Positions 7,601 to 53,014 of a stretch of DNA of 64,000 nt are shown in pieces (within the stretch, counting starts at the first letter, position 1; each line of letters starts with the position of its first letter). Source of the DNA: a virus. Position numbers and translations under genes: made by a program. The notes beneath the pieces are model-generated. The model ran no database searches and had not been told where the DNA came from. It was given only the letters and a program-made list of their open reading frames with translations. The stretch is taken from positions 1 through 64,000 of IMG/VR virus record IMGVR_UViG_3300045988_017048; one strand, 5' to 3'.

Positions 7601-10600
7601 TGAGTATTTGGGTTCATGAGAGGCTCATAGAACTCTCTACTATATGCAGGCATATAGCACTCAAGATACTTAATCCTCTTGTTAGCACCTTCACCTTCAA
7701 ATACTATATGAAGCTCATCAGTCAAGCCATAATCAGATACCTGAATTAAAGCTCCACCTCTAATCTTCTGTTTAGTAATTCTACTCTTGATTACACTATT
7801 AAGAAGTGTCTGTACTCTTTGAGATTGTACAGGGTCAAAGAGAGGGATATTAAAGTTATTGTTCTCATCAAGAGTACAGGCCCTCATCATATCCATACCA
7901 TATCTTTGATTACCTCTTATCTCTTCAAGTAAGATTTCCTCTACTTTCTTTGGGTCTTTGAATATCTCATCTACATCAGCAAATGCTTGAAGAATGTTCT
8001 CAGTGTTGATAGCATTGTACAGGTCAAGCCACTCTCTCTTAGTCATCTTCTTACCATTAACCTCAATGATTGTATCATCAGAGATGTCAGCAGTAATTAG
8101 CTTTCTAATCTGAGTACCTACCAACTGAACTGCATCAATGGCATGTTCAGGAGTTGCAGTCTGAATACCATAATCTTCATAAGATACCTTATGTACTACA
8201 TTAGGATTCTCATTACCAAATCCAATACCTGTGGCATCTTTAAGTCTTTGGATTACATCAGCCTCTGTATTAATATCATTCAAATCTATCACACCTTGTT
8301 TTCCAACCTTAGTGGTAGATTCAAACTGAACTACATCAATCTGATTATCCTCCATAAACTTATTTATGGCTTTCAATTTACCTGACCTTCCTAAAGGACC
8401 AGCAATTAATTCGTGCATAGCAAGTAACAGGAACTCTGAGTTCTTATGCTGTACAGGGGTCTTAATTCCAGTATGGCCTTCAATGCCACTGTTATTGTTG
8501 ACCTGTGTATAGACATAAGGCTTCTTAGTCTGCCAAATGATATTGAAGTCCTTAATATTCCAATCTCCATTCTTGAAGTTGTTATATGCTTGCTCCATAT
8601 CATCTGTCCACTGACCTGACATACCAAGTATTGCCCTATAGGAACTCAAACTTCTATATGCCTGAGCATCTGCTACATTCACATTTCTAAACTTGCTGAT
8701 GATGTTATCCCTGTCTATCTTGGTCATTTCATTTCTTCTAACCCTTTCATCAAGTACAGTCTTGATGTCTTCAAGTACAGAGGATATTATCTCATCATCT
8801 TTCAAGTAGATGGTTCTTTCCCAATCCCTACCAATTCTCTCACCTTTGTAAGTAGCCTTAGTATTCAGTCTAAGGGCAGGAGCATGAACCTCCTTATATC
8901 TCTTCTGAAAGTCCTCAAGGTTCTTATAGAAAGCAAGGTCAGTAGTAGTAAGCTGGATAATTTGTGAAGTAGCTAACTTACTATTCCAATAGTACTCTCT
9001 AAGTGCATCCTTAGCATTATTCTTAACAAACAGGCTTCTTGAGATTGACTGAACATCTTTCAACTCCATCTCACCTCTTGTTGCCTTATCTGTAAGTAAT
9101 GCCTTGATTTGCTCCATTAAGCTATTAGCCTCTCTGTTATCAAAAGCACTATTATTGTTATAGGCTCTGAGCATTAGTTCCATATTGGTATTCCACAATG
9201 AACCTAAGGCATCTTTGGCCTTAGTAAGTGCTTTTGCAGTTATTGTATTCTGCTTGGACTGACCTTCAAATGGAAGATACTTGTATTTACCATTAGGAAG
9301 CTCATCCAAAAGTCCTACCCTTGACCAATCTCTGTAGGTCTGTTCAAAACCATCTTCCATCATGTCATTAAGGGCAGTTCTTAGGAAGTTCCTAAGTTCA
9401 GCACCAGTACCTTTGGATTTAAGTCTGCTTAGTCTATCAATGAATGTCTCTCCATTGTCATATCTGAGGTTGTTAAGTGCAGGAAGGAACTTAAATTCTG
9501 CACCTCCCATACTCTTTATATTACCATTCTTATCCCTGGCAATATCATAGTTAGCAATAGGCTCTACACCCTTATCTCCTCTCTGATAAGCTTCATCTCT
9601 TTCTCTAACCAGCATAATTCTGTCATACTCTTGATTAACCAAGTCCACTAACTTGTCAAGGATAACATCATCATAGGTTCTCTTCTTACCATTTTCATCA
9701 AGTACATCACCTGTTGTATACTTTCTGAATCTAATAAACTCAGCAGAAGGGCTATCTGAAAGAATAGGAACATGATACCAAGCATACTTTATACTTGACT
9801 TTGCAGAGTCAGGGTCTCCCCAATACTCTGTAAGAAGAGCTAAAGTATAGTCCAAATCATCCCAATTGGTATAGTCTACTTTGTCAGAGTTCAATACTAC
9901 TTTATGGTTAAGACCTTTTCTTAACTCATCAGACTCTGCAAGCTGTCTTAGCCAGTCATTTCTCCAATGGTCACTCTTAAAGAACCACTCATACTGTTTA
10001 AACTCAGTCTGCATAAACTGTTCAAATCTCTTCTTGTCATTCATAACATTCTTGAGATTCTTAATCAGCTTACCTAAGTAGTTAGGAGTAACATGAGAAT
10101 AGTAAGACTTATCATTCTCTCTGACACTACTTTCAATAGCATCCTCAGTAACTTCTGCCATCATACTTGCAATCATATTGTAAGCAGAGCCAAAAGTATT
10201 GATAAGGTCTCCTCTCTTTTCAGTGCCATCCTCCTTTGTCTCAGACTTAACTTCACCTTTCTTAATACCACTGAATATAATATTCAATTGTGGTAAAAGA
10301 AGCATGATTGGGTCAGTAAATGTGATACCTGGAGCTGTCTTTATATCAGTTAATGCAGTTTTCAATATAGAAGGATTGGCATCAATACCTAACATATGAA
10401 GCAACTTCATTATAGTATTCCATACATCTTCTCTCTCCAAGAGTTGAAGTCTGGATTCTGTATCAAGGTTCTGGAACATATTATTTAATGTTTCAGTCCA
10501 TTGTAAACCTTTAGCCGCATTATCCTTGTTTATTTCCCCATTCTTCTCATATACACTATCATCATCAAGCTGTACTCCATTCTCATAGTTATCTCTCCAA

Positions 10601-26850: not shown

Positions 26851-27528
26851 TTAATACTCTTTATACCATTTTATAGGCACACCATAAATCTCTTTTACCT
26901 TATTACTTATATCAACAAATAGCTGATGTGGCATCTTAGTACCACTCCTTGCAAAGTATGCAGGATGCTCAATCTCTATAATGTGATTGAATCTACTATT
27001 GATATAAGGTTTGAAGGTTCGGGCTTGTCTGCCAAACAATACATATACTATAGCTGTATTATACTCAGACAAGTTCTTTAGCAATTTAGCTATGAATGGT
27101 CTCCATAACATTACATGGGAACCTATCCTATTCATTTCTACAGTGAGTGCAGAGTTTATCATTAGTATTCCCTGTTTAGCCCAACTCTCCAAAGTTTGGT
27201 CAAAGGTAATACAATAATGTGGAACCTCAAAATTAATGGCTGCTTCTTTAACAATATTTAATGAAGGAGACAAGTTATCCTCATTCACTTCCTTCCTATT
27301 ACCAAAAAGTATGCCAGTTGCAACTCCCTTTTGTGGATAGGGGTCTTGACCTAACATAACTACTTTTAAGTCCTTGAGAGGACAAAGCTCAAATGCTTTG
27401 AATACATCAGATTGGGCAGGACACAATGGCTTCCTCCTGTATTCCTGTCCAACCTTAACCATTACATTATTAAGCTCTGTCCTATCAATTACTTTCATCC
27501 AATCTCCAAAGTATTCATCTGATGTCAT
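26851..27528 (-). CDS. ung: Uracil-DNA glycosylase, family 1-like
   Basis: VVMLGQDPYPQKGVATGILF (GQDPY motif), LMINSALTV, IEHPAYF. Confidence 0.8.
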   Translation of the reverse strand: MTSDEYFGDWMKVIDRTELNNVMVKVGQEYRRKPLCPAQSDVFKAFELCPLKDLKVVMLGQDPYPQKGVATGILFGNRKEVNEDNLSPSLNIVKEAAINFEVPHYCITFDQTLESWAKQGILMINSALTVEMNRIGSHVMLWRPFIAKLLKNLSEYNTAIVYVLFGRQARTFKPYINSRFNHIIEIEHPAYFARSGTKMPHQLFVDISNKVKEIYGVPIKWYKEY

Positions 27529-28295
27529 ATCAGCATCATTATGTCATCAATATTGTCAATAAGGCATTCATTCAGTGCATCATTAGAGCAGGTAGATGGA
27601 GTAGGTTTAATAGGTTCTATAAAGAACTTATTGAAATTATCTACTATGACCTTTACTTTCCTGTCCTCCAGATTATTGCTGAAATTGTGATTGCTTCTTG
27701 GGAAACTTATATCCCTACTTGTATAACAGGGAATCAATTTCTTAATGATACCTTTATTAATCAACTTATCAGGCTCTAAGAATACTTTGGGACTGACATG
27801 GCACACAGGTCTGTAATAGACCATAGTATTACCATTGTTCTCAGTATGTACACTTCTTGCAGTTAATGTACATAATAGTAATGGAGTGTAGCTCTCATCA
27901 AAGATGATACCTTTACCACCATAATACACTTCACCCTTATTGGTAATTATCTTCTGCAATCTTTTACCATATTCTACATTAGCAAATAATTGAACCATGA
28001 TACTACCAAAGGTTCTTCTCTCTTGGCTTGGTGCATTATCATATAATGGCAGTATTATCTTCTTGACTCCCATAATTGTAGGATGAGCCAAATTATCTGA
28101 GACCACCTTTTCAAAGTGTCTTCTTGCAATCACAGGTATCTCTACCTCATCATTGTTTACTTCAATGACAAGACTTCTTCTAAATACATTGTTACTATCA
28201 AGAGACAGACTCATTTCAAGCTGGTCTGGATTATCAGATTCATTGTTATCAAAAACACCCATTACATTATATACAAATCTTGGGCTAAATTCCAT
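27525..28295 (-). CDS. Hypothetical protein (256 aa), last gene of the E1/JAB operon
   Basis: ATG shares a base with the E1-like stop (TAATG); its end overlaps the ung start by 4 nt. Confidence 0.7.
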   Translation of the reverse strand: MEFSPRFVYNVMGVFDNNESDNPDQLEMSLSLDSNNVFRRSLVIEVNNDEVEIPVIARRHFEKVVSDNLAHPTIMGVKKIILPLYDNAPSQERRTFGSIMVQLFANVEYGKRLQKIITNKGEVYYGGKGIIFDESYTPLLLCTLTARSVHTENNGNTMVYYRPVCHVSPKVFLEPDKLINKGIIKKLIPCYTSRDISFPRSNHNFSNNLEDRKVKVIVDNFNKFFIEPIKPTPSTCSNDALNECLIDNIDDIMMLI

Positions 28296-29428
28296 TATAC
28301 TTCAGTTTTAAAATACATTATTTCTGCATTATATGTGGTAAGGAATGGCAAGTCTCTGTCAATGACAGGCTCACATTGATTAGCACAGAAGTTTACAAAC
28401 AAATTAACCATATAAGATGCAATCATATTTGCACAGAAGGTAGTTTGTTTATAGGAGCAGATAGTTTCATCAGCTTCTGCATCAGAGAATAGGAACTCAT
28501 TATTGTACCTATTGATGTTGTACTCATCATCTCCCTTAATACACAATACCTGAAACTCTTCTGCTGCTAATCTGCCATCAATAAACAAGCAATTCTTTCT
28601 CTCCTCTTCTGGTTTGGATTGAACATGATTTACCCATTTATTAAAGAAAATTCTTCTTGCTGCCATGCTATCAAAGCCACAAATCATGATGTCTGATGCC
28701 TCAGACTCATCAGTGAATCTTTCACTTATTGCAAAGACACTACTATAGCCAGCATAGTTCCTAATCATCTCAGCCAGTGCAGATACCTTAGGTCTACCTA
28801 AATCAGATTGACCATATAACTGACCTGACATATTGACAGCTTCTACTATATCATTATCATAGATAAACATGGAAGCTGGCTTCATTCTTGCCAATAAAAA
28901 GCCCACATAACTACCAATACCACCTACACCTGCCAAAATGACAGTCTTCTTTTGAATGTTCTCATACCAAATGGCAGAACTGAACCTACTTGTAGCTTCA
29001 TCCACAAGCAAAGTTGCAGAGTTTGTAGGTATCTCTTGGTGTGCATCTTCTACAGCTTGGTCAAGGATAGCTTGCTCTTCCTCTGAAAGTTCAAAACTAA
29101 TACTATCACCATTATCTTCTACAGAGCTGCCTGTCCTCATAGCCCAAGCCTCTTCAATTAAACTCTTGAAGTGTTCATTGACAAAGATACTTGTTACACC
29201 TTCAGTGTCACTATATACAATTTTATAGGTATTAGGTACACCATCCAAACCAACAACATTGAGAGAGGTAATATCACCCATTCTAATACCATTAAGAACA
29301 TTATTGGTAGTGCTAATGTCAGCATATCCTACCTCATGATATTCACGAACATTATCCTCATTAATACTTTCCATAAGGGAATTGTAAGCTTCAGTTGCTT
29401 CTTGTGGAATTGTTACTTCTTCATTCAT
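28295..29428 (-). CDS. E1/ThiF/MoeB-like adenylyltransferase domain protein
   Basis: C-terminal Rossmann domain: KKTVILAGVGGIGSYVGFLLARM (GxGxxG), IYDNDIVEAVNMSGQ, DLGRPKVSALAEMI; N-terminal ~150 aa unknown; ATGA overlap with the JAB gene. Confidence 0.7.
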   Translation of the reverse strand: MNEEVTIPQEATEAYNSLMESINEDNVREYHEVGYADISTTNNVLNGIRMGDITSLNVVGLDGVPNTYKIVYSDTEGVTSIFVNEHFKSLIEEAWAMRTGSSVEDNGDSISFELSEEEQAILDQAVEDAHQEIPTNSATLLVDEATSRFSSAIWYENIQKKTVILAGVGGIGSYVGFLLARMKPASMFIYDNDIVEAVNMSGQLYGQSDLGRPKVSALAEMIRNYAGYSSVFAISERFTDESEASDIMICGFDSMAARRIFFNKWVNHVQSKPEEERKNCLFIDGRLAAEEFQVLCIKGDDEYNINRYNNEFLFSDAEADETICSYKQTTFCANMIASYMVNLFVNFCANQCEPVIDRDLPFLTTYNAEIMYFKTEV

Positions 29429-30633
29429 AATATTAAATATTTTTGAAGTACATCAATATACCCTTTGATATAATCATTTTCAGGGAGTTTTGTAAGCTCC
29501 TCTATCATATCATGGGCACAAATAGCACAAATTTCTGTTTCATCAAAGCCAAGCTCTTCTAATTTCTCATCTGTCGTATACCATGTAAGATAATCTGCAT
29601 AGGTATCTGCCCACACTTTGAAATTTTTCATGCCTTCTTCACCCTTACCAAATCTCTTTTCATACAGTGTAGGCATTGACTTAACCCATTTAGGAATATC
29701 AATCTTACTATCATTAGGGATAATAATACTGCCTGTAATCAATTGGAGTACAAGAGATTTCAAAGTAGCTCTATCAAATGTCACCTGACCATAGGGCAGA
29801 CTATAGTTATCATCAAATGGCAAGTCATCTGTATTATCAAAGAGAGTTGGCTGAACCACCTTAGGCTTATTAGCTTCCTTCTTGACAAGATTTGCTGGAC
29901 CTGCCTTTGTATCATGGGAATTAGCAATAATAGGCTTATAACCACCCTGATATACAGGTGTCTGTACTTTCTTGGCTTTCTCTGCCTTAGCTTGCTTAAT
30001 TCCCTCAAGTCTTGCTGCCATGTCTGGAAAGGAATAATTCTCACCTTCTTTCTCTATTTTAAGGTAGAACCATTCAATTTCATCTGCATCACTTACATAT
30101 TCCTTAGTATCCTGCTTTTCACCATCACCAAAGAACTCATAAGATACAGACTCCATGACCTGCTTTGACTTGATTCTCCTTGTGATTGCAGCAGTATAAG
30201 TACCTGCATTATTCACAATAAGAGATACAAAATTGTTCCTATCCCTGCCTTCTTCCTTTAGAGTAGCAGTATCTGTTCCACTAAAGAAAGTGCTCATATT
30301 GTTATGGGAATGTATAAGGCCCATCTGACAATCAAGCAGTTCAGGATTTTCACACATATAGGATATTACATCAGGATTCATATCAAACTCTGTATAGGCT
30401 TGAGTACCAATATCCATAATGTAAATATCCACACATCTTATTACAAGGTCGTCATTTTCAAATGAGCCTTCATGTGTAAAGAATAATGTGCCTGACCATT
30501 CAGTACTCCACACTTTTTGGCAGACAAATCTTATCTTTCTCTCCACTTCTGCTGGGATAATCAGCTTATAATTATAGGTACCTGACTTCTGTACCAAGCT
30601 GATTACTTTCGTGGGTTGCTTTATTTCTTCCAT
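29425..30633 (-). CDS. JAB/MPN (JAMM) metalloprotease domain protein
   Basis: Exact JAMM spacing HSH-NNMSTFF-SGTD (HxH-x7-S-xx-D) in the N-terminal ~160 aa; C-terminal ~240 aa unknown. Confidence 0.7.
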   Translation of the reverse strand: MEEIKQPTKVISLVQKSGTYNYKLIIPAEVERKIRFVCQKVWSTEWSGTLFFTHEGSFENDDLVIRCVDIYIMDIGTQAYTEFDMNPDVISYMCENPELLDCQMGLIHSHNNMSTFFSGTDTATLKEEGRDRNNFVSLIVNNAGTYTAAITRRIKSKQVMESVSYEFFGDGEKQDTKEYVSDADEIEWFYLKIEKEGENYSFPDMAARLEGIKQAKAEKAKKVQTPVYQGGYKPIIANSHDTKAGPANLVKKEANKPKVVQPTLFDNTDDLPFDDNYSLPYGQVTFDRATLKSLVLQLITGSIIIPNDSKIDIPKWVKSMPTLYEKRFGKGEEGMKNFKVWADTYADYLTWYTTDEKLEELGFDETEICAICAHDMIEELTKLPENDYIKGYIDVLQKYLIL

Positions 30634-31888
30634 ATCTATAATTTAACACTTTAAGTATTGTTGCTAATATGTATAGTGCAGTATGAGTATTAAGAATTAT
30701 ACTCTTATTCTCATTCCTCACCTCAGCAATATCTGTAATATTAACAGTAATCTCTTTTCCCTTGAACATGCAAACTTTTTTGCCTATATATTGAATATAA
30801 TCATCCACATTGTTCAAGCCCCTATCATAGTAAATCTTCCCATTATCTATGACACATTCTTTTAAGACATCTCTCCTCTTCAATTCTGCAAACTCAGTAG
30901 TTAGCTCCTTCTTATTGAACTGGTCATTATACCACTTAATAAATTCATTGCTAATAAGTACAATAAACTCAATGAGTGACATACCAATAGAATAAGAGCC
31001 ATTTATATAATTGAATTTAAGTTTCTTTGAATTGATAAAGCTTCTTACAAATTTCCTCAACTTATCAGAACTAAGGGCACTTCCATAGTTATAGTGGTTT
31101 GATGACAGATATGTAACAAACCTATCTACACCCATCTCCATGTTATCAGTACCTAGCTTTTCCAAATAATTATAAGGTCTGCCAGCAATGGATTCTACAG
31201 TTACATACTTACTTAGCTCAAGACAAAACATATTCCACATATCCCCATCATAGTCCCTATTGAGGGCACTAATAGTACCATTGATGGGACCACTGCCTGT
31301 GCAAGGACTCTGAAAATTGGTAAAGTCATCTTTAGGAATCCTACTGATATGACTGTGCATATATCCACTGCTAAAGTGAAGCATAGTATATTCTGACCTG
31401 TTAAGTCTAAATCCACCATTCAATGTATTCAATGTGCCATCATACATTACTTTCACCTTAGCCCACAGATGGTTAATATCCACAAATCTGTCATGCTCAT
31501 TAGTTACTCTTACATGAGGAAAATGTACAAGAATGAATATGTCATTGAACTTAGCATTACCAATTCTTTCCTTTACTATAGTATTTGCAAACGCACTTAC
31601 AACCTTTTCTACTTGGTCTGTAGGTAAATCAGTAATAGCCTGTGCTTCATACATGCTCCAGTCATTCCTGTTCATGCTTACAATATGCCTATCGGGAATA
31701 TAAGTAGATAAAGACTCTATATTCATCCAAGATTTGAACTTATCCAAACTCCAATATCCTTGCATATCAATTCTATCTTCCCCAAAGAAATCATTGAATA
31801 TGCCCAATACTCGGAGTGGCTTGTCCATCAAGGAGTTATATAGTTCTTCTATCTTTTCCTCAATTAATTTAATTGTTTCTTCACTCAT
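30572..31888 (-). CDS. Hypothetical protein (438 aa), first gene of the E1/JAB operon
   Basis: ORF overlaps the JAB gene start by 62 nt; contains GYMHSHI...FQSPCTGSGPI; no fold assigned. Confidence 0.7.
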   Translation of the reverse strand: MSEETIKLIEEKIEELYNSLMDKPLRVLGIFNDFFGEDRIDMQGYWSLDKFKSWMNIESLSTYIPDRHIVSMNRNDWSMYEAQAITDLPTDQVEKVVSAFANTIVKERIGNAKFNDIFILVHFPHVRVTNEHDRFVDINHLWAKVKVMYDGTLNTLNGGFRLNRSEYTMLHFSSGYMHSHISRIPKDDFTNFQSPCTGSGPINGTISALNRDYDGDMWNMFCLELSKYVTVESIAGRPYNYLEKLGTDNMEMGVDRFVTYLSSNHYNYGSALSSDKLRKFVRSFINSKKLKFNYINGSYSIGMSLIEFIVLISNEFIKWYNDQFNKKELTTEFAELKRRDVLKECVIDNGKIYYDRGLNNVDDYIQYIGKKVCMFKGKEITVNITDIAEVRNENKSIILNTHTALYILATILKVLNYRYGRNKATHESNQLGTEVRYL

Positions 31889-31894
31889 ATTACT

Positions 31895-31939
31895 GTAAAA
31901 AAAGTAGGTAAGGGGGCATTTCTAACCTCCTTACCTACT
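31895..31939 (-). terminator. Intrinsic terminator (hairpin usable in both orientations) after the 246-aa gene
   Basis: Stem AGTAGGTAAGG/CCTTACCTACT (31903-13 / 31929-39) flanked by an A run on one side and a T run on the other. Confidence 0.6.
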
Positions 31940-31952
31940 TACTTGTTTTTTT

Positions 31953-32693
31953 TTAATTGACTCCCATTCCTGTGAACATATCATCAATCTCATCATCAGA
32001 GTAAGGAGAAGCTGACTTAGGCTTATACTCCTCAGAAGGTGCAGCACTTACTGCAACTTCACTTCCAAGGATGCCAAGCACTTCCTCTTTCTCATACTCC
32101 TCAATTGTGCCATTGTTCTCAAGAATTTCCACCAACTTATTGATAGCAGTTCTTGCTACAATATCAACACACTCACCACCTTTACTTGCAGGTGCTACAG
32201 AGGCACTTACTTTAGGAGTGTTTACAGGTGCTTCTACCTTTTCCTCCTTTTTAGTCTCAGCCTTAGTCTCAGCTTTAGGGGCAGGCTTTAAAGCATCATT
32301 GTTCTGTACCAATGCAATAAGGTCAGCAGTCTTACACATAGTGAAGTTCTTACCAAACTTCTTTACACAAGCATCCTGCAAACCCATAGACTTGATAGCA
32401 TTATATGCCTCAGTTCTGCTCATTGCTCCTGACCTAATCTTCTTATTGGTGTTAGTAAGCATGAAAACCAACTCATTGGTGATAGTTCCCTTGTAAGGAA
32501 CATCATGAGGAAGAACTGAAGCATCATTCTTCAATTCAACCTTTGATGTACCCTCAAAGAAGGTCATACCATCATAGTCAATACCATTGGCTCTCAAGTC
32601 ACTCTTCAACTCAGCAAGAGTCGTGGCTGCTGACATAATAACACTCTTCTTCTGATTCTTAGTCTGTACGACTGTAATTTTTCTCGCTTCCAT
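31953..32693 (-). CDS. Hypothetical protein (246 aa) with Ala/Lys/Pro-rich linker and acidic C-terminal tail
   Basis: ORF with A-rich leader and its own terminator; C-terminus SDDEIDDMFTGMGVN resembles acidic tails of phage ssDNA-binding proteins. Confidence 0.7.
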   Translation of the reverse strand: MEARKITVVQTKNQKKSVIMSAATTLAELKSDLRANGIDYDGMTFFEGTSKVELKNDASVLPHDVPYKGTITNELVFMLTNTNKKIRSGAMSRTEAYNAIKSMGLQDACVKKFGKNFTMCKTADLIALVQNNDALKPAPKAETKAETKKEEKVEAPVNTPKVSASVAPASKGGECVDIVARTAINKLVEILENNGTIEEYEKEEVLGILGSEVAVSAAPSEEYKPKSASPYSDDEIDDMFTGMGVN

Positions 32694-47487: not shown

Positions 47488-48249
47488 CTAATCAAATAAG
47501 TTTTTCACTCTATCACCAAGAATCTTAGCTGCCTTGATTGCATCTTCTTGATTTCTGAAGTATACAATACCTGCATACTGTACAGTATTGTGCTGATATA
47601 CACCAACACCACTGCAAGTATCAACTACAGGACCACTGCCATTGTTATAATTGCCAAGGAAATATCCTGTATTGCTTGTAGTTTTCTTCCAAGAGCCATT
47701 GAAGAACTTAGCAATGACTGCCAAGTCTACAAGTGTATTATACTTCTCTGCTTCATCAACAGGGACATTGGCACAGAAGCATGTATTGCATACTTTACTG
47801 TTGATGTATTTGAAGTTGAGCTTCAATTCATCCTCAGTATATGCACTCAGTGCTAATGTACGCAATGTGCTATTACCACTATTATACCACTCTATTGCCT
47901 GTTCAAGTGTTACCTTGATGTTTCTTTTCTCTTCCATGTTATTTGTTCTTTGTTTGTCAATGTCAAAATCACTTCCTACCAAGCTACCATTAACCAATCC
48001 AGTAGGCTGGGTAATAACCTGTCCATTTACCTTGGTAATGTAGATGTCTTTCAGTGTTATTCCTTGTTGAACTCTATCAGTATCATAAGTAAACCCTACT
48101 ACCATCATCCCAGTAGTGTATCTTGGGTCTTCTACCATATCATAAAGAGATACAGTATCATAGTTGCACAAGAATTTATATCTCTTATATGAAGCTATTT
48201 GATAGAAAGGTTCTTTTCTGTGTGTGAAAATTACAGTTATTGTTCGCAT
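47488..48249 (-). CDS. Hypothetical protein (253 aa)
   Basis: ORF. Confidence 0.7.
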   Translation of the reverse strand: MRTITVIFTHRKEPFYQIASYKRYKFLCNYDTVSLYDMVEDPRYTTGMMVVGFTYDTDRVQQGITLKDIYITKVNGQVITQPTGLVNGSLVGSDFDIDKQRTNNMEEKRNIKVTLEQAIEWYNSGNSTLRTLALSAYTEDELKLNFKYINSKVCNTCFCANVPVDEAEKYNTLVDLAVIAKFFNGSWKKTTSNTGYFLGNYNNGSGPVVDTCSGVGVYQHNTVQYAGIVYFRNQEDAIKAAKILGDRVKNLFD

Positions 48250-48518
48250 GATTCTTCTCCTATTATTTTGTTAAACCACATGTACAAAGACAATACTTCA
48301 AACTCTTTCTTTGAGATTAGCTTATAGCAACAGAATATCATTACTGCAACAGCTATAAAAGTCTGAAAGAAATATCCATTGTCATAGATGCTATCTACTC
48401 CTCCTACAAAGAGTATAGTTACAAAGCCTGTTGTCCATAACAATATGCCTTTGATTATAAACTTAAATTTGTTCATTTTGTTTAATTGCTTGTTAAGTTG
48501 AAAATAATTCAAGCACAT
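48237..48518 (-). CDS. Small membrane protein (93 aa)
   Basis: Two hydrophobic segments. Confidence 0.55.
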   Translation of the reverse strand: MCLNYFQLNKQLNKMNKFKFIIKGILLWTTGFVTILFVGGVDSIYDNGYFFQTFIAVAVMIFCCYKLISKKEFEVLSLYMWFNKIIGEESCEQ

Positions 48519-48747
48519 CTTCTGTACTAAATTCTACCTTATTCTTATAGTCTATGTTAGACTTACTCATAGATTCACTGCCTTGATTATTCATAATGTT
48601 GCTATGAGCTAAGGTATTATTATGTACAGAGATGTGCTTTATATATTCATCAATGACCAATCCCACACTCTTGTCAAGAAGAGCATGAGATTGGGCAAAG
48701 ATGTATAACTCTCTAATTGTCACTGTTATATCTTTTATGGAATCCAT
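48493..48747 (-). CDS. Hypothetical protein (84 aa)
   Basis: Overlapping ORF in operon. Confidence 0.5.
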   Translation of the reverse strand: MDSIKDITVTIRELYIFAQSHALLDKSVGLVIDEYIKHISVHNNTLAHSNIMNNQGSESMSKSNIDYKNKVEFSTEDVLELFST

Positions 48748-48970
48748 CTAAGAAAGTAGAGTCAAGCTCATATCTAAGATTAAGATAATCAGACATATAA
48801 TCTGAACCATCTTTATCCCAAATCCCATTGTTATCCAGTATATTGTCTGAATAATTTAGGCACTTATCCATCAGTCTTATTGTATCATTCTGTTTGGATA
48901 TTGTTTCACCCATTGCTACTATTATCAGTAATAGAGCAAAAGATAAAAGTGTAATTATTATCTTATACAT
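48713..48970 (-). CDS. Small secreted or membrane-anchored protein (85 aa)
   Basis: N-terminal signal-like segment MYKIIITLLSFALLLIIVAMG. Confidence 0.55.
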   Translation of the reverse strand: MYKIIITLLSFALLLIIVAMGETISKQNDTIRLMDKCLNYSDNILDNNGIWDKDGSDYMSDYLNLRYELDSTFLDGFHKRYNSDN

Positions 48971-48981
48971 TGTTATCTATT

Positions 48982-49257
48982 TTATTGTTCAGTATCTATC
49001 AAATCTTCTATTATTATACAAGGTATCTTGTCTAGATTTAATTGATACTTACATACTTTGAAGCCTGTAATATCTAGGAGTTTTTCTATTTCCTTAAATG
49101 TAGTTAGTGTAATGTAGACTTCTTCATAGAATGATTCACCTAGAAAATATTCTTTGGCTCCAGTATTTCTGACTTTGAAACCTTTTCTTTTTAAGAAGTT
49201 ATATATTTCTACATTGACTCCTAAGGAGTTGCCTCTCTCTAATAATTGAAACTTCAT
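48982..49257 (-). CDS. Hypothetical protein (91 aa)
   Basis: ORF. Confidence 0.55.
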   Translation of the reverse strand: MKFQLLERGNSLGVNVEIYNFLKRKGFKVRNTGAKEYFLGESFYEEVYITLTTFKEIEKLLDITGFKVCKYQLNLDKIPCIIIEDLIDTEQ

Positions 49258-49268
49258 ATATTTAATAA

Positions 49269-49370
49269 CTATTTATTTAATTGTTCGTTGGTACTTTTGG
49301 CATATTCTATCAATAAATATATGAATAGAATGCCAAGAATTTGTGCAAGGATGAATAGGATTATTTCCAT
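49269..49370 (-). CDS. Possible 33-aa single-TM peptide
   Basis: Hand-translated MEIILFILAQILGILFIYLLIEYAKSTNEQLNK; fills a 100-nt gap. Confidence 0.3.
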   Translation of the reverse strand: MEIILFILAQILGILFIYLLIEYAKSTNEQLNK

Positions 49371-49597
49371 ATTATAGTCACCTCCTTTTCAAGTCTTGTT
49401 ACTTCCATTGGTGTAATAGCCATCAAGTTACCAAATACTTTGATATATGCCTGTTTCTTGATAACTATTTCCTTCTTTGTTGTCATTTCCATGAATACTT
49501 TATGATTTCTCTTCAACATATCCATGTGTAATTTCTTTGATTGCTTGTAATTCTTTGAACTACATACTGCATTAGGATTTACTCTGCATCTTGCCAT
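49361..49597 (-). CDS. Hypothetical basic protein (78 aa)
   Basis: ORF. Confidence 0.55.
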   Translation of the reverse strand: MARCRVNPNAVCSSKNYKQSKKLHMDMLKRNHKVFMEMTTKKEIVIKKQAYIKVFGNLMAITPMEVTRLEKEVTIIWK

Positions 49598-49600
49598 AAC

Positions 49601-49792
49601 TTAGTCCATCATTAAGTCCCATAAATATGATTCATACTCACATGCAATTTCACTATAAGTTAGTTTGGCTTCCTCTAAATACTCTGAGAGGAAATTACTT
49701 ACTTGTTGGAAATTGTTAATATCACCACTGAAGGTGACATTAAGCCACTGCTCACAAAAGTGAACAGCAGCTTTCTGTCTGTCTGTAGTCAT
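49601..49792 (-). CDS. Hypothetical protein (63 aa)
   Basis: ORF. Confidence 0.5.
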   Translation of the reverse strand: MTTDRQKAAVHFCEQWLNVTFSGDINNFQQVSNFLSEYLEEAKLTYSEIACEYESYLWDLMMD

Positions 49793-49977
49793 AATCCTAT
49801 TCCTTTGACAAGTTTATATGGTATATATACTGAATCACTAACAGATACTCCATGTTTGTGATACTTTATAGTATCCCACTCTGAGATACAAGCACACATA
49901 CCATTTTTACCTATTATAGTGCAAAAGCCTTTACTATTCTTCAAGACTTTCTTTATTCCTCTAACACTTTTGCTCAT
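49789..49977 (-). CDS. Hypothetical protein (62 aa)
   Basis: ORF, 4-nt overlap with the next gene. Confidence 0.5.
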   Translation of the reverse strand: MSKSVRGIKKVLKNSKGFCTIIGKNGMCACISEWDTIKYHKHGVSVSDSVYIPYKLVKGIGL

Positions 49978-50006
49978 TTGATTGTTTGTTTATGGATTGA
50001 TAAAAG

Positions 50007-50081
50007 GGAGATATGATAGACTCGAACTATCATTATAACTGCAATTATTGAGTTATGTACTAACCATTGTACTAATATCTC
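50007..50081 (-). tRNA. tRNA-like gene with a 10-nt anticodon loop (isotype undetermined)
   Basis: Otherwise canonical cloverleaf: acceptor GAGATAT/ATATCTC, D arm GTAC-aatggtta-GTAC, T arm GATAG-TTCGAGT-CTATC. The anticodon stem TAACT/AGTTA encloses CAATAATTGC (10 nt). Confidence 0.45.
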
Positions 50082-50474
50082 CTAATTCCTAAGTCATAAT
50101 ATTAGTTGCTGTCTTTTACATATCTTAATTCTGACCTAATATATTTAGTTTCAAAACCTTCTTACTCTCTGTGCAATTTTATGTTGATTCTGCTCCTTTC
50201 TATCCTCACTAAGTGTATTGAGTAATTAATAATGTTACTCTCACCACAGTCCTGTAGTAGTATGCTATTCTTTACATCTGCACCCAATTTCAGTAGCACT
50301 CCCAATATTATTGGTACTAATTGAAGACATTTTAACAACAATTAATATGTGTTTGTTCGATTGTTTGCTTGTTAGAGTGTGGTTTGTATTATTCCTGTAA
50401 CAGTAAAAACAGTCATACATTATTGGATGACTATTCTTTGTTGCTAATTGTAATGAGGTAATAATTATGGGGTA

Positions 50475-50508
50475 GTGACATAATGTCACACATCTGACAA
50501 TATGTCAG
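50475..50508. repeat. Two tandem palindromes, TGACA-N3-TGTCA
   Basis: GTGACATAATGTCAC (50475-89) and CTGACAATATGTCAG (50494-508), centres 19 bp apart, in a non-coding region. Confidence 0.6.
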
Positions 50509-50810
50509 TCCATTCTATTAACTCTCAGTAAATCAACAAGTTACATTCAACACAAGACAAGGAAGATAGGATATAAAGTGTATTCCACACTCTATTATCC
50601 TATCCTACTTATCCAATACATTAAACCCCTAAATACTCTACTTACCTCTCTAATCCTCTTGTCAGGAAGAGATATAAATAGGGCACATCTCATCTCACTC
50701 TATACATTAACAGAGTTAAATCCTATTACATATAATATAATGTGTAACATATCTCAGAGTTATACTAAGAGCATACTGATGCCTACTCATATAACTTTTA
50801 CACATAAATA

Positions 50811-50853
50811 CTATTAATGTTTAAAGGATTAAACTCTATTAATGCTTAAAGGA
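50811..50853. repeat. Two direct repeats of 18 nt (1 mismatch), 25-nt period
   Basis: CTATTAATGTTTAAAGGA (50811-28) and CTATTAATGCTTAAAGGA (50836-53). Confidence 0.6.
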
Positions 50854-50888
50854 AATGAAAAGGCAAACAGGCATTCCTGCCTGTTGCC
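50851..50888 (-). terminator. Intrinsic terminator of the 85-aa gene
   Basis: Minus strand hairpin GGCAACAGGCAGG-aat-GCCTGTTTGCC followed by TTTTCATTTCC. Confidence 0.7.
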
Positions 50889-50894
50889 CTCCTG

Positions 50895-51152
50895 TTAGAA
50901 GCTTGCCAATGTGGGTGCACCTCCCTGACCTTCCTCATGAAGAAGCCAGAATGAGCTACCATCTGAGCCTGTGACATTGCTCAGCATAGGATGAGTTGGA
51001 ATACCCTTGACTGCAACTGCTCCTGTCTTAGCACCATAGGTGAAGAACAACTTCCCAGTCTTAGGATTCTTCTTGACATCAATCTTGGTCACATGCATTT
51101 CAGCCTTGAACTGCTCAACAGTCAAGGTGTCATTAAAAACGAGATTTCCCAT
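50895..51152 (-). CDS. Hypothetical protein (85 aa); a stand-alone transcription unit next to the divergence point
   Basis: ORF with its own strong terminator; first leftward gene. Confidence 0.65.
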   Translation of the reverse strand: MGNLVFNDTLTVEQFKAEMHVTKIDVKKNPKTGKLFFTYGAKTGAVAVKGIPTHPMLSNVTGSDGSSFWLLHEEGQGGAPTLASF

Positions 51153-51190
51153 AGTAGTGTAAAATGTTAAATTGTTAATAATGTTAATTT

Positions 51191-51221
51191 TGGCTTACGG
51201 GGGTAGGACCCCCTTGGGCTA
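51191..51221. other. GC-rich extended hairpin within a GC-rich island (51192-51260)
   Basis: GGGGG-tagga-CCCCC core (51199-51213) extended by flanking pairs, followed by the G-rich tract GATGGGGAGGGTGTGGTTGGTG; stands out in an AT-rich genome. Confidence 0.5.
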
Positions 51222-51329
51222 AGTGATGGGGAGGGTGTGGTTGGTGTAACTACCACTCCTAAAAATACAATAGAAAAAAAAAATTAAAAAAAAAATTATT
51301 TTTATGCAATAAATTTTTTATTTATATAT

Positions 51330-51360
51330 TTGCATATATCAAAACTTTTACCTACCTTTG
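51330..51360 (+). promoter_or_regulatory. Bacteroidetes-type promoter, rightward
   Basis: TTGCAT-N17-TACCTTTG; preceded by long A/T tracts. Confidence 0.6.
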
Positions 51361-51657
51361 CATCCTAGTAGAGGCTGTGGTGGAAGAGCCTTTCACCCAT
51401 GAGGTTAAAAAGTAATGGGTCAGAAGTTGGGTTAGTACTCTCACACTTACATAGAGAGGAGGTTGTCCCCAATACTACTAAAATTGCTACTATATAAATT
51501 AGATTGCATGAGCATATCCACCTGAGAAAATGCACAGGGAATCATGCTATAGGGGTATAATCAAGAACTGGTCTAATGAAGTTAGTAGTTAAAAGGAGAT
51601 TAGAAATAACTCTTATGAAGCCATAACAAAGCTTCAGGGACATTACTATATACAAGA

Positions 51658-52059
51658 ATGAAGAAGATTAGTAATTACATTAAGGATTCTATTAAGTGGT
51701 TATGGCAGTTTCCACAGAATATGCTTGCTCTATGTATAGAGGGTATATTGTGTCAAGCTGCATACAGGGAAGGTAAAGCAGATGGTAATATCATTATAAT
51801 GAATATTGTTCTATCTTCAGCTATGTCATTAGGAGATTATCTCTTTGTGAGTCCTATGTCATCACAGGAGTCTATCCAACATGAATGTGGTCATAGTAAG
51901 CAATCTGACATATTAGGTCCACTATATTTGATAGTAATAGGAATACCATCATTACTACATAACATAATACATTATCTGTGTAGTAAGATAGGAATTAAAT
52001 GGAACTACTACAGTTTTTATACTGAATCTTGGGCTAACAAGTTAGTAGGAATTACTTGA
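51658..52059 (+). CDS. Membrane protein with HExxH motif (zincin-like, DUF3267-like)
   Basis: IQHECGHSKQ (HExxH) flanked by hydrophobic segments. Confidence 0.45.
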   Translation: MKKISNYIKDSIKWLWQFPQNMLALCIEGILCQAAYREGKADGNIIIMNIVLSSAMSLGDYLFVSPMSSQESIQHECGHSKQSDILGPLYLIVIGIPSLLHNIIHYLCSKIGIKWNYYSFYTESWANKLVGIT

Positions 52060-52148
52060 AAGAATATAGATAAGACCTAAAACCAAGCCTATTTTACTCC
52101 TTCAAGACGAGAAAATGATACTTGAATTGAAAATAATTGGGGAAAAGC

Positions 52149-52179
52149 TTGTACAATTCAAATATTTTTCTTACCTTTG
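52149..52179 (+). promoter_or_regulatory. Bacteroidetes-type promoter upstream of the tRNA array
   Basis: TTGTAC-N17-TACCTTTG. Confidence 0.6.
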
Positions 52180-52223
52180 CAGTGTGATTAAGGAAAATTG
52201 GTTTTAGGAAATTTCCACATAAG

Positions 52224-52269
52224 GAATGTTGCTTTAACCAGTTGTTTAAGGTAACATTCTTTTTTTTTT
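52224..52269 (+). terminator. Intrinsic terminator or attenuator between the promoter and the first tRNA
   Basis: Stem GAATGTT (52224-30) / AACATTC (52253-59), with further pairing inside the loop, followed by a run of 10 T (52260-69). Confidence 0.6.
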
Positions 52270-52271
52270 AT

Positions 52272-52344
52272 TGCCTCATAGTATAGTTGGTTATTACACG
52301 GGATTTTGGCTCCTGTAACATAAGTTCGAGTCTTATTGGGGTAA
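52272..52344 (+). tRNA. tRNA-Gln (TTG)
   Basis: Acceptor TGCCTCA/TGGGGTA; anticodon arm CGGGA-TTTTGGC-TCCTG; T arm ATAAG-TTCGAGT-CTTAT. Confidence 0.8.
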
Positions 52345-52361
52345 CAATAATAAAGGTAAAT

Positions 52362-52433
52362 ACCCTCTTAGTTCAATGGATAGAATAAGAGACTTCTAAT
52401 CTTTTGATATAGGTTCGATTCCTATAGGGGGTA
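52362..52433 (+). tRNA. tRNA-Arg (TCT)
   Basis: Acceptor ACCCTCT/AGGGGGT; anticodon arm AGAGA-CTTCTAA-TCTTT; T arm ATAGG-TTCGATT-CCTAT. Confidence 0.8.
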
Positions 52434-52439
52434 CTAAAT

Positions 52440-52513
52440 GTTGGGTTAGACGAAGTGGTGAAGTCATCACACTTTCAATGTGAAGATTATGGGTTCGAGT
52501 CCCATACCCAATA
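52440..52513 (+). tRNA. tRNA-Glu (TTC)
   Basis: Acceptor GTTGGGT/ACCCAAT; anticodon arm TCACA-CTTTCAA-TGTGA; T arm ATGGG-TTCGAGT-CCCAT. Confidence 0.8.
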
Positions 52514-52519
52514 CAATAT

Positions 52520-52591
52520 AGAGCTATCTACTAATGGACAGGTAACTGCCCTCTCAAGGCAGAAATTTGGGTTCAATTCCCAATAGCTCTA
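52520..52591 (+). tRNA. tRNA-Glu (CTC)
   Basis: Acceptor AGAGCTA/TAGCTCT; D arm TACT-aatggaca-GGTA; anticodon arm CTGCC-CTCTCAA-GGCAG; T arm TTGGG-TTCAATT-CCCAA. Confidence 0.75.
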
Positions 52592-52597
52592 CAATTT

Positions 52598-52670
52598 AGG
52601 GTGTGTAGCATAGTGGTTAATGTGCCTGACTGTCAATTAGGAGATTGGAGTTCAATTCTCCCACATCCTG
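52598..52670 (+). tRNA. tRNA-Asp (GTC)
   Basis: Acceptor AGGGTGT/ACATCCT; anticodon arm CCTGA-CTGTCAA-TTAGG; T arm GGAG-TTCAATT-CTCC. Confidence 0.8.
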
Positions 52671-52696
52671 CTAATCCACCTTTAATCTACTGAAGT

Positions 52697-52720
52697 CCTA
52701 TCCTACAGAGGTAGGATAGG
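52697..52720 (+). other. Perfect 10-bp hairpin between tRNA genes
   Basis: CCTATCCTAC-agag-GTAGGATAGG; the arm CCTATCCTAC also occurs at 50600-50609. Confidence 0.6.
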
Positions 52721-52725
52721 CAAAT

Positions 52726-52810
52726 GGAGAGGTAACTCAGTGGGACTGGGACTTGTCTTGAAAACAATGGGAGCAGTAAAATGCTTGGGGGTCAGGACCT
52801 CACCTCTCCG
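52726..52810 (+). tRNA. tRNA-Ser (TGA), type II
   Basis: Acceptor GGAGAGG/CCTCTCC, discriminator G; anticodon loop CTTGAAA; long variable arm; T loop atypical (GTCAGGA). Confidence 0.65.
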
Positions 52811-52849
52811 CAATAATGGTGTTCTTTGACATGTTGGTGAGGAAAGTAT

Positions 52850-52935
52850 GGAGAGTAAACTATCAAGGTGATAGTCCTATCTGCTAAATAGTGAGTACCC
52901 TAATAAGGTATTTGTTTCGAGTACAATGCTCTCCG
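52850..52935 (+). tRNA. tRNA-Ser (GCT), type II
   Basis: Acceptor GGAGAGT/GCTCTCC, discriminator G; anticodon loop CTGCTAA; long variable arm GTACC..GGTAT; T loop TTCGAGT. Confidence 0.7.
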
Positions 52936-52941
52936 CAATAT

Positions 52942-53014
52942 ATGGGTGTAATTCAGTAGGTAGAATGCTGGCTTTGGGAGCCAGTTGTCCTTGGTTCGAG
53001 TCCAAGTACCCATA
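52942..53014 (+). tRNA. tRNA-Pro (TGG)
   Basis: Acceptor ATGGGTG/TACCCAT; anticodon arm CTGGC-TTTGGGA-GCCAG; T arm CTTGG-TTCGAGT-CCAAG. Confidence 0.8.

Follow-up and report, generated by a model that had tools for sequence, protein, structure and literature searches.

The five-gene cassette of the window

The DNA analysed here is a viral stretch of 64,000 nucleotides (positions 1 to 64,000 of the IMG/VR record IMGVR_UViG_3300045988_017048; the whole stretch is referred to as the window). It comes from a crAss-like gut phage, and this report concerns a cassette in its replication module which, on balance, appears to process and activate a ubiquitin-like protein (Ubl). The conserved unit is composed of five genes on the minus strand, in the order U-A-JAB-E1-B. 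Gene U (31953-32693; 246 amino acids, aa) encodes the candidate ubiquitin-like precursor protein, with a predicted β-grasp domain and an invariant Ser-Gly (SG) tail. It is followed by gene A (30572-31888; 438 aa), encoding an orphan enzyme-like protein; by the gene of a JAB/JAMM metallopeptidase (29425-30633; 402 aa), recognised by its JAMM motif and the Prok-JAB profile; by the gene of an E1-like adenylating enzyme of the ThiF/MoeB/UBA5 type (28295-29428; 377 aa), recognised by Pfam ThiF; and by gene B (27525-28295; 256 aa), a fast-evolving orphan and the last gene of the chain. The gene of uracil-DNA glycosylase (UDG; 26851-27528) is located downstream of gene B.

The list of open reading frames (ORFs) and a check of the nucleotides reproduced the coordinates, lengths and overlaps of the original prediction, which had described four leftward genes chained as an operon. 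The ORF of gene A and the JAB gene have 62 nt in common; ATGA at 29425-29428 contains both the JAB stop and the E1 start (4-nt overlap); the E1 stop and the start of gene B share TAATG at 28295 (1-nt overlap); and the stop of gene B and the start of the UDG gene overlap by 4 nt, again as ATGA. These four genes are indeed chained; however, the conserved unit has five genes, and the 246-aa gene upstream had been missed.

Gene U is separated from gene A by a hairpin followed by a T-run (31889-31952, minus strand). The RNA fold of this element has a ΔG of -22.1 kcal/mol (z = -5.24), equalled by none of 200 shuffles, and about 14 nt are left between the U-run and the ATG of gene A. In the phages ΦcrAss001 and DAC15 a hairpin and T-run occupy the matching position, and their stem sequences differ. 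A simple terminator scan did not detect the hairpin because its loop is longer than the limit of the scan. The element is probably an intrinsic terminator or attenuator.

As in the phages that share its gene order (see below), the cassette is embedded in a replication block, which reads: helicase, Sak4-like ATPase, primase, the cassette, UDG, a resolvase-like nuclease and a PD-(D/E)XK exonuclease. The closest public genome is bajarodcaudo virus 1, with 79.6% nucleotide identity across the region.

The ubiquitin-like precursor protein

Gene U was syntenic in every genome compared, and its counterpart in ΦcrAss001 is Gp79. The alignment showed a strongly conserved N-terminal part of about 90 residues, which terminates in K84-x-x-x-S88-G89. 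Among 202 non-redundant sequences, K84, S88 and G89 were invariant (202/202), and A90 was found in 94%. In the AlphaFold2 model, built from a 68-sequence alignment, residues 3-81 form a β-grasp with the strand and helix order β-β-α-β-β-β (predicted local distance difference test, pLDDT, 86-94). A flexible basic tail follows at residues 82-89 (TNKKIRSG), and within it residues 84-89 have a pLDDT below 50. The tail K-K-I-(R/K)-S-G resembles the basic tail L-R-L-R-G-G of ubiquitin.

The rest of the protein is of a different character. Residues 93-133 form a three-helix domain, which is HeH/SAP-like by eye only, without profile support; residues 135-175 are a disordered linker rich in K, E and P; helices follow at 178-209, and then an acidic tail, SPYSDDEIDDMF…. 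At this C-terminus (window 31953-32100) there is a conserved acidic motif, S-x-Y-S-D-D-E-I-D-D-M-F, resembling the acidic C-terminal tails of proteins of the single-stranded DNA-binding (SSB) type.

Foldseek comparison of the N-terminal domain with the PDB was led by SUMO1, DIX, UBX, ISG15, ubiquitin, TINCR and a bacterial Ubl (8tyx), with probability 1.0 and target-normalised TM-scores (template modelling scores) of 0.55-0.71. Ubiquitin-superfamily domains also dominated the best 50 PDB matches, mostly with probability 1.0. At the sequence level, no Pfam, NCBIfam or PDB match was obtained for any of 8 members of the family, and the hhalign probability was below 0.1% against Ub/NEDD8/SUMO and ThiS/MoaD (manually entered reference sequences). 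Because no sequence method recognises gene U, the N-terminal domain, as modelled, is taken to be a new Ubl sequence family. The original prediction had supposed that a β-grasp protein ending in Gly-Gly might be hidden in the 438-aa or 256-aa proteins, or in the extensions of the E1 and JAB proteins; the candidate was found instead in the N-terminal domain of the upstream 246-aa gene product, and it ends in Ser-Gly.

The E1-like enzyme

The 377-aa protein matched Pfam ThiF with an E-value of 1.5e-16 (60.8 bits against a cut-off of 28.1 bits) over residues 155-267. Its top curated models are ThiF equivalogs, namely NCBIfam PRK08644 (3.6e-18) and thiF_fam2 (5.8e-15). The weaker matches include the 6A-MBL cap2_3 model (3.1e-9; 35.9 bits against a cut-off of 320 bits), MoeB and TcdA, and the SAMP-activating E1 model was matched weakly (1.1e-6). 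When the family profile was searched against the PDB, the nearest structure was UBA5 (1.2e-12), followed by MccB, PaaA, TcdA, MoeB and ThiF, with Cap2 at 6.8e-6 and BubCD at 3.4e-5. In PADLOC, the Cap2 E1 domain was matched at 3e-12 over the Rossmann segment only. By these profiles, the protein is an E1/ThiF-type adenylating enzyme rather than a dehydrogenase or methyltransferase, in agreement with the original prediction.

The core of the enzyme spans residues 146-377; residues 1-140 are a variable N-terminal extension, which occurs in a diverged form in ΦcrAss001 and DAC15, whereas cr111_1, Dulem virus 41 and Fpv1 lack it. The window protein contains the motifs GVGGIGS, DNDIVEAVNMSGQ and GRPKV. 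Residues G167, G169, G170, D191, D193, N199, Q203, K214, D253, R258 and C324 are invariant in 89 non-redundant homologues; the three glycines belong to the GxGxxG loop and are conserved in 88/88 aligned sequences, D191 and K214 would be the ribose-binding Asp and the Lys of the ATP site, and D253 is at the position of the Mg-binding Asp. C324 lies within CSYKQT, is invariant in 89/89 and is located 157 residues past the GxGGxG motif, presumably a spacing like that of ThiF, MoeB and UBA5. An invariant N-terminal Arg, R148, may substitute for the Arg of the canonical 'NLxRQ' motif, which the family lacks (see below).

The JAB metallopeptidase

The 402-aa protein carries the motif HSHNNMSTFFSGTD, and the full signature is E…HxH-x7-S-xx-D. 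Residues E45, H108, H110, S118 and D121 do not vary in any of the aligned members of 85 non-redundant homologues. The catalytic domain covers about residues 1-165; it is followed by a low-complexity middle part and a conserved helical C-terminal domain (about 285-402). The start codon lies within gene A, and the genomes compared share the N-terminus 'ME…K'. The Prok-JAB family PF14464 was matched by the window protein at 5.7e-4 and by 8/9 family members, with a best value of 5.4e-5. The best PDB matches of the family profile were the JAMM1 protein of P. furiosus (E 0.026) and CSN5, and the metal motif was aligned in them. Judged by these alignments, the JAMM site of the protein is complete, and the domain that holds it appears to be of the Prok-JAB type. 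The JAMM site claimed earlier was borne out by the invariant residues, and the JAMM and Rossmann motifs quoted for the two enzymes are real rather than chance resemblances, given the Pfam and Prok-JAB matches and their invariance in the 85 JAB and 89 E1 homologues.

The two orphan partners

The AlphaFold2 model of the 438-aa protein has a pLDDT of 85.1 and a predicted TM-score of 0.67. None of its Foldseek matches in the PDB was significant (best E ~1, probability ≤0.12), and the BFVD matches were only uncharacterised proteins of crAss-like phages or podoviruses. No Pfam, NCBIfam or PADLOC match was obtained, and the PDB sequence profile search gave 0 matches at E ≤ 10. The protein falls in phrog_15310, which is of unknown function. 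An exhaustive HMMER search retrieved 3,293 representative clusters at 50% identity, 1,153 of them at E ≤ 1e-30, and all members have 360-445 aa.

In 217 diverse sequences of this family, S179, H180, C196, G198, E232, S233, G236, P238 and F280 were 100% invariant, and N130 (99%), R164, Y176, H178 (98%) and D41 were at least 97% conserved. The conserved centre comprises N130-E131, R164, Y176-x-H178-S179-H180, C196-x-G198-x-G200-P201 and E232-S233-x-x-G236-x-P238. In the predicted model, C196 sits in a Gly-rich loop at the N-terminus of a helix. This pattern of conservation is indicative of an enzyme. The last ~15 residues (window 30572-30620) have a pLDDT below 50, yet a terminal Tyr-Leu/Ile is conserved in distant genomes; this end could be a docking or recognition tail. 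Recurrent matches of about 56 residues to picornavirus 3C proteases were discounted (probability ≤0.05).

The original prediction also allowed for an E2 enzyme hidden in one of the two orphans. There was no E2 among the Foldseek PDB matches of the 438-aa protein, and its hhalign comparison with four manually entered canonical E2 sequences gave a probability below 0.1%; it is therefore not classed as an E2. By eye only, the succession of a helix, four long antiparallel strands, a loop with His…Cys and further helices recalls UBC; the invariant nucleophile Cys196 with nearby His and Asn is necessary, not sufficient, for an E2. For the 256-aa protein an E2 was rejected, as no Cys, Ser or His is conserved across 8 genomes. 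Its sole conserved motif is G-x-x-G129-x-I-x-D133…LLL, in which only G129 and D133 are invariant (8-genome alignment), and searches of Pfam, PHROG, NCBIfam and the PDB gave nothing. The position of gene B is stable: it directly follows E1 in 92/94 of the loci surveyed below.

Distribution and conservation of the cassette

Co-occurrence was surveyed with hidden Markov models (HMMs) of the five families on the ORFs of 94 loci (7 annotated phages, 80 from IMG/VR and 7 from genome assemblies; cited by L numbers where needed). E1 served as the anchor of the loci, since the 438-aa family is too divergent for pattern back-translation. Wherever the flanks suffice, the order U-A-JAB-E1-B on a single strand was recovered. 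The families were found in 85 (U), 87 (A), 91 (JAB), 94 (E1) and 92 (B) loci, and missing members coincide with the ends of contigs or loci, except in L092, where a diverged gene B (248 aa) was recognised by eye. The genes therefore co-occur in related genomes, as the original prediction had proposed to check.

The same gene order is present in ΦcrAss001 (Steigviridae), where the cassette corresponds to Gp79-Gp75, or Gp79-Gp74 if the span is taken to Gp74, and in DAC15, cr111_1, cr128_1 and Dulem virus 41. The Flavobacterium phage Fpv1 (Fipvunavirus) has the same cassette order, with UDG moved elsewhere, and an Alistipes-associated contig also carries the five genes in this order. In public annotations, the E1 gene is named "thiamine biosynthesis protein ThiF" or "E1 enzyme family protein", the JAB gene "metalloprotease domain containing protein", and the remaining cassette genes "hypothetical".

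Among 50,697 phage records, tblastn detected the module in just 74-83; these are Steigviridae-like, belong to Fipvunavirus or are unclassified, apart from a few unrelated ThiF genes. The E1 clade was present in 350 IMG/VR contigs. The cassette is thus lineage-restricted and not a core of all Crassvirales. The original prediction was not aware of the module in the described crAss-like core gene set; it is no novelty among crAss-like phages, being already present in ΦcrAss001 (Gp74-Gp79), where it is partly annotated.

Cellular homologues of the E1 clade were also sought. A search of about 185,000 species genomes gave only 7 matches, which lie essentially all on phage-like contigs, mostly in metagenome-assembled genomes (MAGs), and the idea of cellular homologues was rejected. 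Cassette-bearing crAss-like contigs (L088-L094) were binned in MAGs labelled Bacilli, Acholeplasmatales, Spirochaetia, Clostridium and Eubacteriales, and L089 and the IMG/VR locus L064 are one and the same 94,451-bp contig. These labels are probably binning contamination and not evidence of hosts. The most divergent copy of the cassette was found in L092, a 120-kb contig of Alistipes finegoldii, beside ThyX and a ClpP-like gene.

A small ThiF-like E1 (27% identical) was also observed in the jumbo Xanthomonas phage PhiXhv-15 (L095, 3751-7630), among ligase and topoisomerase genes. Upstream of it are a 141-aa ORF ending in …AKASGG*, possibly a modifier of the ThiS/Ub type, and an 892-aa Cys-rich protein. 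The other four families of the crAss-type cassette were absent from this locus, which looks like a different phage Ubl/E1 arrangement. A 'HPH…CLG' resemblance of the 892-aa protein to the conserved centre of the 438-aa protein was rejected (hhalign probability 0.3%).

Elsewhere in the window, the GC skew changes sign at about 48000-53000, and the G+C content drops to 0.31 near 48-52 kb. This shift is consistent with a switch from a leftward replication/early block to a rightward gene block.

Homing elements in the cassette

In three near-complete phage contigs (L033:4144-5445, L061:4282-5495 and L062:4425-5354), a free-standing HNH homing-endonuclease gene is inserted two codons past Gly89 of the Ubl; the endonuclease ORF of L062 is degraded. 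In the split contigs, the Ubl is a separate 91-aa ORF ending in "…KKIRSGIC*" or "…KKIKSGKF*", and the C-terminal part is separately encoded with its own start ("MNTNNMTR…"). A group I intron was rejected as the cause of the split, as no Rfam signal was found at E ≤ 1. The natural split boundary coincides with the predicted cleavage site. Since the gene is split at SG, the Ubl and the C-terminal halves need not stay joined. By analogy, the short extension after Gly in the split Ubl may be a cap as in eukaryotic Ubl precursors.

Other cassette genes have also been invaded. The JAB gene of L065 (5882-6842) and that of Fpv1 (L003:8321-9269) contain a group I intron inside the catalytic motif, GLIH|SHNN (Rfam RF00028, 66.4 bits and 43.4 bits, respectively), so that two distant phage lineages have the site in common. 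These introns carry an endonuclease ORF on the opposite strand, which is of the LAGLIDADG type in L065. A third group I intron is located near the 3′ end of the E1 gene in L056 (8828-9991; RF00028, 76.9 bits), with a LAGLIDADG-type ORF at 8846-9658 and an intact 3′ exon, …NPLIDRDLPFLTTYNAETMYLKTEV*, downstream. Free-standing HNH endonuclease genes were also seen between the Ubl and 438-aa genes in L008 (4960-5499) and between the primase and Ubl genes in L033 (3571-4125). This stretch of the replication module is a hot spot of homing elements. Such elements typically home to constrained sequence, and their presence in three cassette genes indicates that these sequences are strongly constrained.

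Comparison with known systems

The cassette shares features with several known systems. The SAMP/UbaA/HvJAMM1 system and the Thermus TtuB/TtuC system likewise have a small β-grasp modifier, a single-domain E1 of the ThiF/MoeB type and a JAMM peptidase, without a recognisable E2 or E3. The SAMP and TtuB systems are also sulfur carriers, and the nearest solved relative of the phage JAB is the archaeal JAMM1. Unlike their modifiers, the predicted phage Ubl belongs to a new family, ends in Ser-Gly and is the N-terminal part of a larger protein. The phage cassette also adds two obligatory orphans (the 438-aa Cys/His protein and the 256-aa protein), has an E1 without the canonical Arg, and is located at a viral replication locus.

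Type I Bub (6E.1/DUF6527) consists of BubAB, a Ubl-E2 fusion, BubCD, a JAB-E1 fusion, and BubE. Its N-terminal Ubl fusion is freed by its own JAB, and experiments showed that the JAB domain of BubCD cuts BubAB right after the conserved Gly (PMC11601596). Its E1, like that of the phages, is a small homodimer-type enzyme resembling UBA5/ThiF, in line with the BubCD match in the PDB (3.4e-5). In the phage cassette, however, JAB and E1 are separate proteins, the fusion partner of the Ubl is helical and acidic rather than a UBC-fold E2, and the DUF6527 serine protease is absent. Moreover, the phage E1 keeps an invariant Cys, whereas Bub uses oxyester intermediates; and Bub is found in bacterial defence islands, whereas the cassette is borne by phages.

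E1 adenylation and a JAB deconjugase are also shared with Bil (BilA Ubl, BilB E2, BilC JAB, BilD E1) and with Cap2/Cap3 of type II CBASS, and Bil has a Ubl as well; all of them play a part in the biology of phage and host. Cap2 is an E2-E1 fusion that acts on a CD-NTase, and such features are absent from the phage cassette. No JAB, E2, CD-NTase or Ubl model of PADLOC was matched by the cassette (gene U itself was not scanned directly). The derivation of the cassette from CBASS or Bil was rejected, as the similarity of the E1 is generic.

Among mobile elements, the tail assembly proteins TAPI/TAPK of lambdoid phages and T1 include a phage β-grasp with a C-terminal Gly linked to a second domain, like gene U. 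TAPI was predicted to be released by the phage JAB peptidase TAPK (Iyer et al. 2006, PMC1779556). Unlike the phage cassette, TAPI/TAPK lack an E1, act in tail assembly and have other partners. The PRTRC system of integrative conjugative elements also combines a ThiF-family protein with a JAB-like protein (PRTRC_A). The corresponding scores of the cassette proteins are 9.9e-8 for PRTRC_ThiF (31.6 against 144.75 bits) and 0.048 for PRTRC_A (13.2 against 101.8 bits). Membership in PRTRC was rejected, as these values are below the cut-offs, the other PRTRC models were not matched by the 438-aa protein, the 256-aa protein or the Ubl, and there is no ParB.

Proposed mechanism and alternative explanations

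On balance, the cassette is probably a phage-encoded, five-gene system for the processing and activation of a Ubl, fixed in the replication module. From the observed domains, motifs, conservation, co-occurrence, natural split and hairpin, the enzymatic steps can be inferred as follows. The hairpin or terminator separates the Ubl gene from the enzyme genes, and therefore partial termination at it might yield the 246-aa precursor in excess of the enzymes, whose genes would be translationally coupled through their overlaps. In this precursor, the Ubl would be followed by the flexible KKI(R/K)SG tail and then by the helical/acidic protein. JAB would cleave past Gly89, giving a Ubl of about 89 residues with a free C-terminal Gly and a separate helical protein with the acidic tail. 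The small homodimer-type E1, to judge from its conserved chemistry, would bind ATP and adenylate Gly89, and it may hold the Ubl on Cys324. More speculatively, the Ubl might then pass to a target either directly or via the Cys196/His178/His180/Glu232 centre of the 438-aa protein. E2-independent conjugation of a Ubl has precedents in archaeal SAMPylation and in Thermus TtuB. JAB could also reverse the modification. The 438-aa protein is the best, putative and unproven, candidate for the transfer or ligase step. Two features suggest replication-associated proteins as the targets: the cassette has a fixed place between primase and UDG, and the protein fused to the Ubl carries an SSB-like acidic tail.

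Several points weigh against this interpretation. The Ubl assignment depends on the predicted structure (Foldseek E ~2e-3), without sequence similarity to Ubl families, and the tail ends in Ser-Gly rather than Gly-Gly. The Prok-JAB match is about 20 bits, under the gathering score of 25 bits, so that the JAB fold is suggested by the sequence rather than established. In the E1 family, the Arg of 'NLxRQ' is replaced by Gly202 in 88/88 aligned sequences, opposite the Arg of MccB and UBA5, and the chemistry may deviate from that of canonical E1s. Cys324 could not be aligned to the crossover loop, as the alignments to solved E1s end earlier and only the spacing fits. No E2/UBC fold was detected by Foldseek or hhalign in the 438-aa protein or another partner examined, the roles proposed for the 438-aa and 256-aa proteins are guesses, and none of the results identifies a target.

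A more far-reaching form of the proposal is that a widespread group of Bacteroidota phages, ΦcrAss001 and DAC15 among them, run their own Ubl conjugation during infection, with a precursor cut by JAB, an Arg-less E1, a 438-aa Cys/His enzyme replacing E2/E3, and replisome or host proteins as the targets, so as to control the replication of phage DNA. This form is tentative and, at present, doubtful.

The cassette might instead be a sulfur-carrier system, in which the JAB-processed and E1-adenylated Ubl would receive a C-terminal thiocarboxylate for the thio-modification of nucleotides, tRNA or cofactors, and the Cys of the 438-aa protein would act as a persulfide relay or in sulfur insertion. 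The best curated matches of the E1, which is small and single-domain, are ThiF equivalogs; triads of Ubl, E1 and JAB are the hallmark of several sulfur-carrier operons in bacteria (Iyer et al. 2006, PMC1779556); the invariant Cys of the 438-aa protein is in a Gly-rich loop at a helix N-terminus; and the cassette lies among genes of nucleotide and DNA metabolism. However, no rhodanese, cysteine desulfurase, PP-loop protein or protein of the ThiG/ThiH/MoaE/TtuA type was found in the cassette. In structure, the Ubl is closest to SUMO, DIX, UBX, ISG15 and ubiquitin rather than to ThiS/MoaD, with which it also shares no profile similarity, and fusion to a helical/acidic-tail protein is atypical for carriers. 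We regard a sulfur carrier as unlikely.

It is quite improbable that the cassette is not a Ubl system at all. The β-grasp would then be an uncleaved accessory domain for replication, the E1 would adenylate a peptide C-terminus (as MccB/PaaA) or a nucleic-acid group (as TcdA), and the JAB would be unrelated. Consistent with this, the solved proteins that score best against the E1 include MccB, PaaA and TcdA, the E1 lacks the canonical Arg, and β-grasp domains are common in non-conjugated proteins, with DIX and UBX among the leading matches. On the other hand, the invariant Ser-Gly closes a flexible basic tail, where modifiers of the ubiquitin type end; the gene is naturally split at this point; the β-grasp gene strictly co-occurs with E1 and JAB; and a small peptide gene like MccA or PaaP was not seen in the cassette.

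The least probable explanation is counter-defence, by which the JAB would strip the conjugates of host Bil or type II CBASS, or the phage Ubl and E1 would act as decoys that jam the host machinery. Bil tags phage structural proteins with a Ubl, and Cap2/Cap3 regulate CD-NTases by Ubl-like conjugation (PMC11601596); the E1 is weakly similar to Cap2 E1 domains (PADLOC 3e-12; PDB 6.8e-6); and a 2026 preprint speculated that a UBA5-like protein of gut phages might relate to such defence systems. This similarity is limited to a generic Rossmann segment and is weaker than that to ThiF/UBA5, whereas the JAB and the 438-aa protein have no PADLOC match and the 256-aa protein has chance-level matches only (gene U was not scanned directly against PADLOC), so the specific link to CBASS Cap2/Cap3 or Bil suggested in the original prediction was not sustained. 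Moreover, the cassette brings a Ubl of its own together with two private orphans, and from Bacteroides to Flavobacterium phages it is always in the replication block and not in a variable accessory region, which fits a core process better.

Novelty and implications

The E1 and JAB components are of known kinds. What appears to be new is the Ubl family, the architecture of the precursor, the Arg-less E1, the obligatory 438-aa Cys/His orphan and the fixed location in the replication module of phages. No paper linking crAss-like phages to ThiF, E1 or ubiquitin-like systems was found in the literature, nor was a description of the cassette; a 2026 virome preprint contains a passing one-line remark on a gut-phage protein family resembling UBA5. 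The labels "thiamine biosynthesis protein", "metalloprotease" and "hypothetical" hide the system from surveys based on annotation. The hypothesis is directly testable, since both ΦcrAss001 (Gp75-Gp79) and DAC15 can be cultured and the proteins concerned are small.

Prokaryotic Ubl conjugation has so far been characterised as a cellular process, in sulfur transfer, SAMPylation, and the anti-phage systems CBASS, Bil and Bub. If the proposal is true, it would add a new Ubl family, an E1 without a residue thought to be universal, and a very large orphan family with an invariant Cys/His/Glu centre that may represent a new kind of Ubl transferase. A complete Ubl/E1/JAB cassette owned by phages would then reverse the picture, and viruses of gut Bacteroidota would employ Ubl chemistry to replicate or to act against the host.

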